DNA from: Escherichia coli O157:H7
GTDB lineage: Bacteria > Pseudomonadota > Gammaproteobacteria > Enterobacterales > Enterobacteriaceae
Direction: 5' to 3' (one strand)
Length of the DNA stretch: 64,000 nt
NCBI RefSeq assembly: GCF_013167455.1
Contig: NZ_CP038328.1
Shown here: positions 51,001 through 57,000 of the stretch, piece by piece
Layout: each line of letters opens with the position of its first letter
Position numbering within the stretch: position 1 is the stretch's first letter
Position numbers: made by a program

Positions 51001-54000
51001 CGATAGCTTTCGCGACTTAGGAAAGGGACATGATGCGTCGTGTAAATATTCTTTGCTCATTTGCTCTGCTTTTTGCCAGCCATACTAGCCTGGCGGTAAC
51101 TTATCCATTACCTCCAGAGGGTAGCCGTTTAGTGGGGCAGTCGCTTACTGTAACTGTTCCTGATCACAATACCCAGCCGCTGGAGACTTTTGCCGCACAA
51201 TACGGGCAAGGGTTAAGTAACATGCTGGAAGCGAATCCGGGCGCTGATGTCTTCTTACCGAAGTCAGGTTCGCAACTCACCATTCCGCAGCAACTGATTT
51301 TGCCCGTCACTGTTCGTAAAGGGATTGTGGTTAACGTCGCTGAGATGCGTCTTTATTACTACCCACCAGACAGTAATACTGTGGAAGTCTTTCCTATTGG
51401 TATCGGCCAGGCTGGGCGAGAAACCCCGCGTAACTGGGTGACTACCGTTGAACGTAAACAAGAAGCACCAACCTGGACGCCAACGCCGAACACCCGGCGC
51501 GAATATGCGAAACGAGGGGAGAGTTTGCCCGCATTTGTTCCTGCGGGGCCCGATAATCCCATGGGGCTGTACGCGATTTATATTGGCAGGCTATATGCCA
51601 TCCACGGTACCAATGCCAATTTTGGTATTGGGCTCCGGGTAAGTCAGGGCTGTATTCGTCTGCGCAATGACGATATCAAATATCTGTTTGATAATGTTCC
51701 TGTAGGTACTCGTGTGCAAATTATTGATCAGCCAGTGAAATACACAACGGAACCGGATGGTTCAAAGTGGCTGGAAGTTCATGAGCCGCTGTCGCGCAAT
51801 CGTGCTGAATATGAGTCTGACCGAAAAGTGCCATTGCCGGTAACCCCATCTTTGCGGGCGTTTATCAACGGGCAAGAAGTTGATGTGAATCGCGCAAATG
51901 CTGCGTTGCAACGTCGATCGGGAATGCCTGTGCAAATTAGTTCTGGTTCAAGACAGATGTTTTAAGAGCGTTGGTAATTAGAAAGCAAAAAGCCTGCTAG
52001 AAAGCAGGCTTTTTTGAATTTGGCTCCTCTGACTGGACTCGAACCAGTGACATACGGATTAACAGTCCGCCGTTCTACCGACTGAACTACAGAGGAATCG
52101 TGTGAACGGGGCGCATATTAATGGCAGTGCATGGTGATGTCAAAGGGTGAAATGCATTTTTTTGTTTGTTTGCTGTCAATTTCAACAAAGTGATGAGATT
52201 TCAATCTTATTGGTAATGAACCATCGTGGTGCATACCCTCCTTTTATAGGGCAGGGGAACGCGACTGCTGGTGAAAAGAGCCAATGACGAATCTATCATA
52301 ATCTCTTATTTGACAGTTGGTTAGCTTGTACATCAACGCCAAAATAAAACTGGCAAGCATCTTGCAATCTGGTTGTAAGTAATGGCGGCACTTGGGCCGA
52401 TTCTCAAAAACCGGAGGCAACATGAACTTCAGACGCCTGAAATACTTCGTAAAAATTGTAGATATTGGTAGCCTGACTCAGGCTGCTGAAGTATTGCATA
52501 TCGCACAACCAGCGCTCAGCCAGCAGGTTGCCACACTCGAAGGTGAGTTAAATCAACAACTTTTGATTCGCACAAAACGGGGCGTTACGCCAACAGACGC
52601 CGGAAAAATTCTCTATACCCATGCGCGGGCCATTTTACGTCAGTGTGAGCAGGCCCAACTGGCGGTGCATAACGTTGGTCAGGCATTATCGGGGCAAGTC
52701 TCGATTGGCTTTGCGCCAGGAACCGCTGCGTCATCCATCACCATGCCCTTATTACAGGCGGTTCGCGCTGAATTCCCGGAGGTCGTTATCTATCTTCATG
52801 AAAATAGCGGTGCAGTGCTTAACGAAAAACTGATAAATCACCAACTCGATATGGCGGTGATTTATGAGCATTCCCCTGTGGCTGGTGTATCCAGTCAGGC
52901 TTTGCTGAAAGAAGATCTTTTCCTAGTAGGAACTCAAGATTGCCCGGGGCAAAGCGTTGATGTTAATGCTATTGCACAAATGAACCTTTTTCTCCCCAGT
53001 GATTACAGCGCTGTTAGACTTCGTGTTGATGAGGCGTTTTCCCTACGGCGGCTCACGGCAAAAGTCATTGGTGAAATTGAGTCTATTGCTACGCTTACCG
53101 CAGCGATTGCCAGCGGCATGGGCGTTGCAGTATTACCCGAATCGGCCGCGCGTTCGTTATGTGGCGCAGTAAATGGGTGGATGTCACGCATTACCACGCC
53201 TTCCATGAGTCTCTCTTTGTCATTAAATTTACCCGCCAGAGCGAACTTATCGCCACAGGCACAGGCAGTGAAAGAGTTGTTAATGTCAGTGATTAGTTCT
53301 CCAGTGATGGAAAAAAGGCAGTGGCAATTGGTGAGCTAAGCGTTATATCGGGATGGAATAAGATGCGGGTTTTTATTATTTGTTATGCCGGGCGTTAGAC
53401 TTTAACAATAACGGGATATCTGAACTGCCCGGAGTTTACCGTGAATTTCCAACAACTAAAGATAATCCGCGAAGCTGCACGTCAGGATTACAACCTGACA
53501 GAGGTTGCGAATATGCTTTTTACCTCACAGTCAGGCGTCAGCCGTCATATTCGGGAACTGGAGGATGAACTTGGCATCGAAATATTTGTTCGACGAGGTA
53601 AGCGACTGCTGGGCATGACTGAACCGGGCAAAGCATTACTGGTCATTGCAGAACGTATTCTCAATGAAGCCAGTAATGTTCGTCGGCTTGCAGACCTGTT
53701 TACCAACGATACGTCTGGCGTTCTGAACCGCCCCGGGTTTCCTGGAGAGTGTTTTATCTGTGAACTCAGGCTGCCAGATCATCGTTTCCGATGGAAGCAT
53801 AATAAGCTTTTTCTGCTTCTGCCGGAGGAGTATGGCCCAGCCTTCCCAGCAATCGTCGATTGTTATACCAGTCCACCCACGTTAGTGTGGCCAGTTCCAC
53901 TTCTGCACGGTTTTTCCAGCTCTTACGGTGTATTACCTCCGCTTTGTAAAGACCATTGATGCTCTCAGCCATCGCGTTGTCATACGAGTCGCCTGTACTC

Positions 54001-57000
54001 CCTGTTGATGCCAGTAATCCGGCTTCTTTTAGTCGCTCCGTATAGGCCAGTGACACATACTGAGAGCCTTTATCGCTGTGATGGATGGTGCCAGACGGAC
54101 GACGGGCCCACAACGCCTGCTCCAGCGCATCCAGCACGAATGTCGTTTCCATAGACGATGAGACCCGCCACCCCACGATGTATCCGGCAAACACATCAAT
54201 GATAAACGCCACATAGACGAAGCCCTGCCATGTGCTGACGTAAGTAAAATCAGCCACCCACAGCTGGTCAGGTCGTTCTGCCACGAACTGACGGTTTACG
54301 CGGTCGCCTGCGGCAACGGCTTTCCGGCTGATGGTCGTACGGACCTTTTTACCCCGGAGAACACCGGCAAGTCCCATAACCGCCATGAGACGTGCCACTG
54401 TACATCTGGCCACCCTGATTCCTTCCCGTAACAACTGACGCCAGACTTTACGCACACCGTACACCTGATGATTTTCATCGTATACGCGCTGTATCTCTCT
54501 CTTCAGCCAGTCGTCGTGCTGCGCACGGGCACTGCGTTTATCCGGATGATGTCGCTGTTGCTGACAATGGTAATACGTTGACGGGGCAATATGCAGTTCG
54601 CTGCATACCGGTCCGACCCCGTACTGCTCACGCAGCTTATCCAGCAGTGGCATCATTTTTTCCAGAGGCGGTCGAACTCCGCCTTCGCAAAATAAGCGGA
54701 AGCCTGGCGAAGGATATCGTTACTGCGGCGCAGTTCACGATTTTCACGTTCCAGCTCTTTCAGACGCTGACGTTCAGCGCTGGTGAGCCCACCATCACCG
54801 CCCCCGGTATCCCGCTCATGCTGGCGAACCCAGACACGCAGAGTCTCCGGCGTACAGCCAATCTTTGGGGCAATGGAACAAATTGCCGCCCACTGTGAGT
54901 CATATTCATCCTGACTTTCCAGAACCATACGAATCGCCCGCTGACGGACTTCGGGGGAAAAACGAGTATTTTTAGTCATCCTGTTTACCTCTTTCTCAGG
55001 GAGTTTAGTCTCCAGGATTTCCGGGGCGGTTCATTCTCACTATTGCAACGACGCATACTCAGGCACGTTATAGCTTGCCAGAGGTCATTAAAGCTTTTCG
55101 CGAACTTTTCCCGGAGGTTCGGCTCGAGCTAATCCAGGGGACGCCACAGGAAATTGCGACGTTGTTGCATAATGGTGAAGCTGATATTGGTATCGCCAGC
55201 GAGCGTTTGAGTAATGACCCGCAGCTCGTCGCCTTCCCGTGGTTTCGTTGGCACCATAGTTTGCTTGTTCCACACGATCATCCCTTGACGCAAATTACAC
55301 CATTGACGCTGGAATCAATAGCGAAGTGGCCGTTAATCACTTACCGACAGGGGATTACGGGGCGCTCACGTATTGATGACGCATTTGCCCGCAAAGGTTT
55401 GCTGGCAGATATTATATTAAGTGCGCAGGATTCTGATGTCATTAAAACCTATGTTGCTCTTGGGCTTGGGATCGGATTAGTTGCCGAACAATCCAGCGGT
55501 GAACAAGAGGAAAAGAATTTAATCCGCCTGGATACGCGGCATCTTTTCGATGCTAATACTGTCTGGTTGGGACTGAAGCGAGGACAACTTCAGCGTAACT
55601 ATGTCTGGCGCTTTCTGGAACTTTGCAATGCAGGACTTTCAGTTGAGGATATCAAGCGGCAGGTGATGGAAAACAGTGAAGAGGAAATTGATTATCAGAT
55701 ATAGCAAAAAGCCCGCTATAAAAGCGGGCTTTTCAGAAATTTGGCTCCTCTGACTGGACTCGAACCAGTGACATACGGATTAACAGTCCGCCGTTCTACC
55801 GACTGAACTACAGAGGAATCGCTGTTGAGGCACATCTTAACGGCGAAAAATCTTTTGTCAAACCCGATTTTTAATTTTCCCAACTGTTTGCCGTTTCTAT
55901 CAACAGTTTGTTGCATTTGCAGACAATTTGATGGCGAAAATCTTTGCAGCTTTGCTGATTCTCCCTCATTATTTGAAATGTGGTTTCACTTTCTGCAATT
56001 AAGGTCGGCTTTGAATATCTCCTCTGCTTTACGCCAGGTTGTTCACGGCACTCGCTGGCACGCTAAACGCAAGAGCTACAAAGTGTTGTTCTGGCGCGAG
56101 ATAACCCCGTTTGCTGTTCCTATCTTCATGGAGAATGCCTGTGTCCTGTTGATGGGGGTTCTGAGCACTTTTCTGGTCAGCTGGCTGGGAAAAGATGCGA
56201 TGGCCGGCGTGGGATTGGCGGACAGCTTCAATATGGTCATTATGGCTTTTTTTGCTGCTATCGATCTTGGTACTACTGTCGTTGTGGCATTTAGTCTCGG
56301 TAAGCGGGATCGACGACGAGCGAGGGTGGCGACGCGGCAGTCATTGGTGATCATGACGTTGTTTGCCGTACTGTTGGCAACGCTTATTCATCATTTTGGC
56401 GAGCAAATTATTGATTTCGTCGCGGGTGATGCCACGACAGAAGTTAAAGCACTGGCGTTGACTTATCTGGAGCTGACGGTACTCAGTTATCCAGCAGCTG
56501 CCATCACTCTAATTGGTAGCGGGGCACTTCGTGGTGCAGGGAATACGAAAATACCGCTACTGATTAACGGTAGCCTGAATATTCTTAATATTATTATTAG
56601 CGGCATATTGATTTACGGCCTTTTCTCCTGGCCGGGACTGGGATTTGTCGGGGCTGGGTTGGGTTTAACCATTTCTCGTTATATTGGCGCAGTTGCAATT
56701 TTGTGGGTGCTGGCGATTGGTTTTAATCCTGCGCTAAGGATTTCGTTAAAGAGCTATTTTAAACCGCTGAATTTTAGCATTATCTGGGAAGTCATGGGGA
56801 TTGGTATTCCAGCGAGTGTCGAATCAGTGTTATTTACCAGTGGTCGGTTATTAACCCAAATGTTCGTTGCCGGAATGGGGACCAGTGTTATTGCCGGAAA
56901 TTTTATCGCGTTTTCAATTGCGGCTCTTATCAACTTACCCGGAAGTGCGCTCGGTTCTGCTTCTACGATCATTACAGGCCGAAGGTTGGGGGTAGGGCAG

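Follow-up and report, generated by a model that had tools for sequence, protein, structure and literature searches.

The cbl gene of an Escherichia coli O157:H7 strain is interrupted by a complete copy of the common insertion sequence IS629. The interruption was found in a 64,000-nucleotide stretch of the chromosome, here called the window. Very probably it goes back to a single recent transposition, which left a null allele of cbl and, with it, a predicted defect in growth on sulfonates and taurine in one O157:H7 sublineage.

A complete IS629 element lies antisense within cbl

The inserted element is a 1310-bp member of the IS3 family located at 53724-55033 on the minus strand; its transposase genes run antisense to those of the cbl strand. 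It starts with TGAACCGCCCCGG at 53724 and ends with CCGGGGCGGTTCA at 55033. Its terminal inverted repeats of 25 nt are 88% complementary (TGAACC...GGTTCA) and show the 5'-TG...CA-3' termini; the orfB-distal repeat IRR lies at 53724-53748 and the orfA-proximal repeat IRL at 55009-55033. On the minus strand, orfA (54653-54979, 108 aa) encodes the HTH part of the transposase and orfB (53766-54656, 296 aa) the catalytic DDE/rve part, and OrfB was recognized by the IS3-family transposase model NF033516 with 316.3 bits (cutoff 160). The two genes overlap at an A6 slippery run (A6-TGATG, 54656-54661, minus strand), and an ALIL frameshift-stimulating pseudoknot could be identified at 54582-54698 on the same strand (Rfam RF01497, 121.5 bits, gathering score 50). 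The overlap, the A-rich slippery site and the ALIL structure are the sequence features of predicted frameshifting in IS3 elements, and a -1 shift at the A6 run would give a predicted OrfAB fusion of 404 aa.

As a reference for IS629, the copy in abgT of O157:H7 Sakai, which is annotated as 'IS629 transposase OrfB', was used in place of the ISfinder type sequence. Both copies are identical at 1309 of 1310 positions, with one mismatch, and therefore the identification does not reflect a chance resemblance; PGAP names the element in cbl 'IS3-like element IS1203 family'. The ends, the two reading frames and the match to Sakai all agree with the IS629 copy reported in the initial annotation, the coordinates of which were exact to the base. 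The TTC target-site duplication given there was also found directly at both flanks of the element: TTC abuts IS629 at 53721-53723 (nt 281-283 of cbl) and again at 55034-55036, a direct duplication within the short (3-4 bp) range. The two junctions are defined by the k-mers GATACGTCTGGCGTTCTGAACCGCCCCGGGTTT and TCCGGGGCGGTTCATTCTCACTATTGCAACG.

The insertion separates the two domains of Cbl

The 5' fragment of cbl (53441-53723, plus strand) begins with a GTG start codon and comprises codons 1-94 and the first base of codon 95. Codon 94 is GTT (Val, 53720-53722) and codon 95 is CTC (Leu); IS629 follows nt 283, i.e. the first base of codon 95, which confirms that the Leu codon next to codon 94 is the one interrupted, as stated earlier. 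The 3' fragment (55036-55704, plus strand) contains codons 95-316 and the stop codon, and thereby nearly the whole LysR substrate/effector domain. Residues 95-316 are encoded in frame without a stop at 55036-55701, followed by the stop codon at 55702-55704. The remainder that had been described as 670 bp in frame measures 671 bp after IS629 when the TTC copy and the stop codon are included. At the junction, this fragment has neither a promoter nor a start codon of its own.

When IS629 and one TTC were deleted in silico, a cbl reading frame of 951 nt was obtained. No nucleotide of this reconstructed gene differs from the intact copies in O55:H7 CB9615 and two further genomes, and O157:H7 genomes likewise have a cbl of 100% identity. 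Thus, IS629 inserted recently, and cbl has no other lesion. The reconstructed protein scored 686.1 bits against the NCBIfam Cbl equivalog NF009324 (cutoff 491), covering positions 1-316 of 316, and 335 bits against the CysB model. Together with the conserved order nac-cbl-tRNA-Asn-yeeO, this establishes that the interrupted gene is cbl, as originally proposed. The intact upstream neighbour nac (52422-53339, plus strand) fixes the synteny, and the gene order ldtA-tRNA-Asn-nac-cbl-tRNA-Asn-yeeO is shared with O157:H7 F3113 and ten further genomes. As the tRNA-Asn gene downstream of cbl (55742-55817) is on the opposite, minus strand, no downstream operon gene is subject to polarity.

Pfam searches with the reconstructed Cbl placed HTH_1 at residues 3-63 and LysR_substrate at residues 90-293. 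In the window, the HTH_1 DNA-binding domain and the linker are carried by the 5' fragment; the two domains are located on separate fragments 1.3 kb apart and not on one polypeptide, and therefore the locus is a cbl pseudogene instead of a functional family member. Against the Cbl equivalog both fragments stayed below the cutoff of 491, with 205.6 bits for the 5' fragment (profile positions 1-96) and 463.8 bits for the 3' fragment (positions 95-316).

The only product that the cbl promoter can still yield is encoded by a residual reading frame at 53441-53959 (plus strand), in which Cbl residues 1-94 are fused to 78 IS-encoded residues to give 172 aa. An exact look-up of this fusion in a public protein collection returned no record, and the left junction could thus not be traced elsewhere. 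A promoter/terminator consensus scan of 53300-55800 gave no promoter-like site reading in the direction of cbl, and hence none at the ends of IS629; promoter-like sites in this region were fewer than in shuffled sequence. Expression of the effector domain from IS629 was considered and dropped, as there is no promoter-like site able to drive the 3' fragment.

The interrupted allele is rare

Among 5,426 complete RefSeq E. coli genomes, the cbl::IS629 insertion was found in none, and full-length cbl is present in 5,411. The 5,418 complete genomes with any match to cbl have a median of one match and at most two. A second cbl copy, intact and located beyond the visible 64 kb, is therefore unlikely. 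The only complete genome in which 80% or more of the junction query is covered, Eco_23-2678, was rejected as a case of the same event: here, an IS3-family element is located in nac and cbl is intact.

The right junction could be identified in the draft assembly of E. coli 99.1793 (AOEF01000105.1), which is 100% identical over 3,769 bp. A search with the 209-aa C-terminal reading frame matched seven contigs, of which just this one carries IS629; in the remaining contigs cbl is uninterrupted and present in frameshift, nonsense or N-gap versions. Searches of a paper library gave no paper naming IS629 together with cbl and none for the accession AOEF. The insertion is a rare, strain-specific knockout of an ordinary type.

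Independent loss of cbl recurs in the same allele background, by a 13-bp deletion, a stop at E61, and +2 and +1 frameshifts. The +1/+2 frameshifts in related contigs were considered as possible footprints of IS excision, but the inserted bases (T, CT) are no obvious remnants of a target-site duplication. In Shigella sonnei, cbl is probably also broken by insertion sequences.

Predicted effect on sulfonate utilization

Cbl is described as the activator of tauABCD and ssuEADCB in three papers (PMC4501297, PMC11794783, PMC11495319, citing van der Ploeg 1997, 1999), in agreement with the role assigned to it in the initial annotation. It is a specific activator of ssu and tau that is needed on top of its paralogue CysB, with which it shares 41% identity (PMC4501297). 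Since tauABCD and ssuEADCB are annotated as intact in O157:H7 Sakai, it can soundly be predicted from the literature that the use of sulfonates and taurine as sulfur source is lost.

The proposed course of events starts with IS629, which would have entered cbl after nt 283 in antisense orientation and duplicated TTC. Transcripts from the cbl promoter would then specify only residues 1-94, with the DNA-binding domain and the linker, followed by the 78 IS-encoded residues, and the effector/oligomerisation domain (residues 95-316) would be severed from the start codon and promoter of cbl. As complete Cbl would be missing, the operons of sulfate starvation, tauABCD and ssuEADCB, would probably not be activated. 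The strain is therefore expected to fail to grow, at least initially, when taurine or alkanesulfonates are the only source of sulfur, but to grow normally on sulfate or cysteine.

That the IS629 copy was merely misplaced into cbl at repeat resolution is extremely improbable. The window does provide a setting prone to assembler errors, as it holds three IS629 copies of 100% identity in an interval of 21 kb, and the junction is absent from all complete genomes searched. However, the duplication in cbl is perfect over its 3 bp and the three copies have their own matching duplications (CAC, TTC and AAC; the Sakai abgT copy has TTT), as expected from real transpositions and not from mis-joins. Moreover, E. 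coli 99.1793 is an independent draft in which the right junction is spanned with 100% identity, which argues that the insertion is not a misassembly. It is also very unlikely that the insertion is silent, with CysB or another factor compensating, or that it acts elsewhere, for example on nac through the 172-aa fusion or antisense read-through. Such effects could be imagined because CysB is a paralogue of Cbl (see the CysB model score above), the N-terminal fragment retains the HTH and linker, and the transposase genes are directed towards the 5' end of cbl and nac. Against this, Cbl is described as being required besides CysB as the specific activator of ssu and tau (PMC4501297), the cbl strand has no promoter-like site around the element, and no gene in sense orientation lies downstream of either IS629 end, cbl being followed by the opposite-strand tRNA-Asn.

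A reversible switch is possible but rather doubtful: excision of IS629 promoted by IEE would restore cbl in a subpopulation, and sulfonate use would be delayed instead of absent. The EHEC lineage of this strain carries IEE, which stimulates the excision of IS629 in O157 (PMC9943667), and in O121:H19 excision of IS600 from lacZ by IEE leads to delayed lactose utilisation (PMC9397093). The reconstructed gene corresponds to the intact allele, and both copies of the target-site duplication are intact. On the other hand, iee is not located in the 64-kb window, and excision modifies the explanation by a null allele instead of replacing it. A wider proposal combines this switch with a burst of local hopping, suggested for one O157:H7 sublineage by the three private identical IS629 insertions within 21 kb, and with adaptive loss of cbl, suggested by the recurrent independent losses described above, to give an IS-based metabolic switch. 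This combination is quite unlikely. In soil, survival of a K-12 delta-cbl strain was 5-10 times better (PMC11794783); if the proposal were true, loss of Cbl would be mildly adaptive outside the gut and IEE-mediated excision would be the way back.

Comparison with known systems

The null allele created by transposition of IS629 into cbl combines a known mechanism with a known gene and is one more case of IS629-driven gene loss in EHEC. IS629 is described as the main source of insertion polymorphisms in O157 (PMC9943667). It leaves the knowledge of Cbl, of the sulfonate regulon and of IS3-family transposition unchanged. Its use may be that of a marker for one O157:H7 sublineage, in which growth is predicted to be absent or delayed when sulfur is supplied only as taurine or alkanesulfonates. 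In addition, the IS629 site in cbl can be typed by PCR and thereby serve to subtype strains.

The closest counterpart is the IS629-disrupted abgT of Sakai (ECs_1917/1920), where the same element, also with a 3-bp duplication, has turned a chromosomal gene into a pseudogene; in contrast to that insertion, the target here is cbl and the allele was absent from the complete genomes. IS600 in lacZ of STEC O121:H19 (PMC9397093) is a further case of a metabolic EHEC/STEC gene interrupted by an IS3-family element, and as both genes are otherwise undamaged, excision is expected to restore function. However, lacZ::IS600 has become fixed in the majority of circulating O121:H19 strains and was characterised experimentally, whereas cbl::IS629 was seen in just one other draft assembly. 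With the cbl knockouts of E. coli K-12 (van der Ploeg 1997, 1999; Keio JW1966) the allele shares the loss of full-length Cbl; from what is stated on Cbl in PMC4501297 and PMC11794783, these knockouts are expected to show no activation of tauABCD/ssuEADCB and no use of sulfonate sulfur. Unlike them, cbl::IS629 arose naturally in an O157:H7 strain, its phenotype is a predicted one, and its insertion sequence is in principle excisable.

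IS629 divides cbl within codon 95

Positions 53724-55033 comprise a complete insertion sequence, 1310 bp long, which starts with TGAACCGCCCCGG and finishes with CCGGGGCGGTTCA, and has terminal inverted repeats of 25 nt each that are 88% complementary. It carries orfA (54653-54979, 108 aa) and orfB (53766-54656, 296 aa) on the minus strand, overlapping at a run of six A followed by TGATG. At this overlap, a -1 shift is predicted from the sequence to produce an OrfAB fusion of 404 aa, and an ALIL frameshift pseudoknot (Rfam RF01497) was detected on the same strand at 54582-54698 with 121.5 bits (gathering score 50). 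With 316 bits, OrfB exceeded the cutoff (160) of the NCBIfam model for IS3-family transposases. Since the element shows a single mismatch in 1310 nt to a copy in abgT of O157:H7 Sakai, annotated as 'IS629 transposase OrfB', the name IS629 is justified; both anatomy and near-identity bear out the initial annotation. In PGAP annotation, this family appears as 'IS3-like element IS1203 family'.

The trinucleotide TTC directly abuts both ends of the element (53721-53723 and 55034-55036), confirming the proposed target duplication. The frame for Cbl residues 1-94 starts with GTG at 53441, upstream of the element, which entered between the first and second bases of codon 95 (CTC, Leu; after cbl nt 283), in agreement with the proposed cut in the Leu codon following codon 94. 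The remainder of Cbl (residues 95-316) was, as expected, found in a stop-free frame at 55036-55701, followed by the stop codon at 55702-55704. Removal of the element and one TTC resulted in a 951-nt ORF that agrees at every nucleotide with the undamaged cbl of O55:H7 CB9615 and of two other complete genomes (L008 and L009), and is 100% identical to cbl of RefSeq O157:H7 strains. Against the NCBIfam equivalog model for Cbl (cutoff 491), the rebuilt protein reached 686 bits, and the two fragments, with 205.6 and 463.8 bits, were both under this cutoff. Pfam domains of the rebuilt protein are HTH_1 (residues 3-63) and LysR_substrate (90-293), and the crystallised cofactor-binding domain of Cbl (2FYI) aligns with residues 87-306. 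Therefore, the break leaves practically all of the effector domain separated from the linker and the DNA-binding domain. The initial structural description holds in all its particulars.

The gene order ldtA, tRNA-Asn, nac, cbl, tRNA-Asn, yeeO agrees with other E. coli genomes. Three tRNA-Asn(GTT) genes (52021-52096, 55742-55817 and 57566-57641) bracket nac-cbl and yeeO; they have equal tRNA-model scores and their flanks register as short repeats.

The insertion is genuine and recent

Over its backbone, the window shares 99.8-99.9% identity with O157:H7 genomes. A cbl match covering at least 80% of the gene was present in 5,411 of 5,426 complete RefSeq E. coli genomes (median one per genome, maximum two), and cbl is otherwise a stable gene in E. 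coli. The cbl insertion was found in none of these 5,426 genomes; in the sole record covering at least 80% of a query across the junction, an IS3-family element sits in nac and cbl is intact, which represents another event. The draft genome of E. coli 99.1793 (GCA_000335015.2, AOEF01000105.1) matches window positions 54732-58500 at 100%, spanning the right junction between element and cbl. Because of this independent match, the clean target-site duplication (TSD) and the separate matching TSD of each IS629 copy in the window, misassembly is ruled out. As the rebuilt gene is identical to wild type, the insertion is recent.

Three IS629 copies, mutually 100% identical, are located inside 21 kb. 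Besides the copy in cbl, an inverted copy at 42656-43965 (TSD CAC) splits a TonB-dependent receptor gene (41010-44497, minus strand), and a copy at 62568-63877 (TSD AAC) interrupts a family-9 glycosyltransferase (GT9) gene (62273-64000) at 62568. Like the cbl junction, both junctions were found in 0 of the 5,426 complete RefSeq genomes; the TonB-receptor junction is also present in draft GCA_000335195.2. The clustering suggests a private burst of local hopping in one O157:H7 sublineage.

Elsewhere, the TonB-receptor gene is already divided into ORFs for Plug and barrel in the absence of this element (L030), and another compared locus (L024) carries IS629 69 bp from the site used here. The glycosyltransferase neighbourhood is repeatedly hit: in O157:H7 F3113, IS629 lies upstream of this gene, and in O111 strains a copy of the IS1203 family occupies a different position close by. 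Two of the copies, in direct orientation, flank 7.5 kb from the cbl 3' end to shiA, possibly setting up a deletion or composite element. ISEc8 (IS66 family: tnpA, tnpB and a 512-aa transposase) is located at 45918-48251, between the TonB-receptor gene and cobU, with the same placement in other O157:H7 genomes (L008, L020). The late region of a lambdoid prophage, with terminase, portal, capsid, tape measure and J, occupies positions 1-27000 and shares 99.9% identity with O157:H7 FRIK1989 and 17B6-2; in it, an 833-aa ORF contains a 162-bp tandem repeat (8181-8773, 3.7 copies, 97% identity).

Loss of cbl recurs in the same allele background

Among compared loci with the same cbl allele, cbl loss recurs independently: L012 and L016 have a 13-bp deletion (nt 236-248), L015 has G181T resulting in E61stop, L017 has CT inserted after nt 202 (in at least 20 samples) and L018 has an additional T at nt 195-197. 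Draft contigs of Shigella sonnei (L031-L033) begin within cbl at nt 197 (residue 67), as does an E. coli partial protein of the O157-type allele (P0007), which may reflect a further junction with a repeat or IS within cbl of those genomes. A K-12 delta-cbl strain survived better in soil, a result obtained without complementation (PMC11794783). Together with the recurrent lesions, this gives a small possibility, which we rate low, that cbl loss is sometimes selected.

Predicted consequence for sulfonate use and possible reversion

The only product still reachable from the cbl promoter is a 172-aa protein, consisting of Cbl 1-94 and 78 IS-encoded residues. The 3' fragment lacks a start codon where it meets the element, and a consensus scan of 53300-55800 identified no promoter-like sites on the cbl strand, hence none at the IS end. 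IS629 lies in antisense orientation to cbl, and the gene that follows downstream, a tRNA-Asn, is on the opposite strand, so no polarity on other genes is expected.

In three papers, Cbl is described as a CysB-like regulator of the LysR type that specifically activates organosulfur use and turns on tauABCD and ssuEADCB under sulfate starvation (PMC4501297; PMC11794783; PMC11495319); all three cite van der Ploeg et al. 1997 and 1999. Both operons are annotated as intact in O157:H7 Sakai, so this lineage does possess targets for Cbl. Because cbl is split, Cbl is their activator and the targets are intact in Sakai, it is predicted from established knowledge that the strain should fail on taurine or alkanesulfonate sulfur, as initially proposed; without full-length Cbl these compounds would be unusable as sulfur sources, and growth on sulfate or cysteine would be normal.

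The insertion might also be reversible. The IS-excision enhancer IEE, common in EHEC, promotes IS629 excision (PMC9943667), and in O121:H19 lacZ is restored when IS600 is excised from it through IEE, leading to a delayed lactose phenotype (PMC9397093). By analogy, the same excision and gene restoration could occur at cbl on sulfonate medium, and restoration is possible because cbl has no second lesion here, provided that the strain carries an intact iee, a gene not present in the 64-kb window. The preferred reading is a recent IS629 insertion that created a cbl null allele. A literature search found no paper naming both IS629 and cbl, and this particular insertion site, which is also rare, appears undocumented. 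Both cbl and the regulon that it controls are already well characterised, and IS629 insertion polymorphisms have been catalogued in O157:H7, the cbl insertion being a standard example of the same kind.
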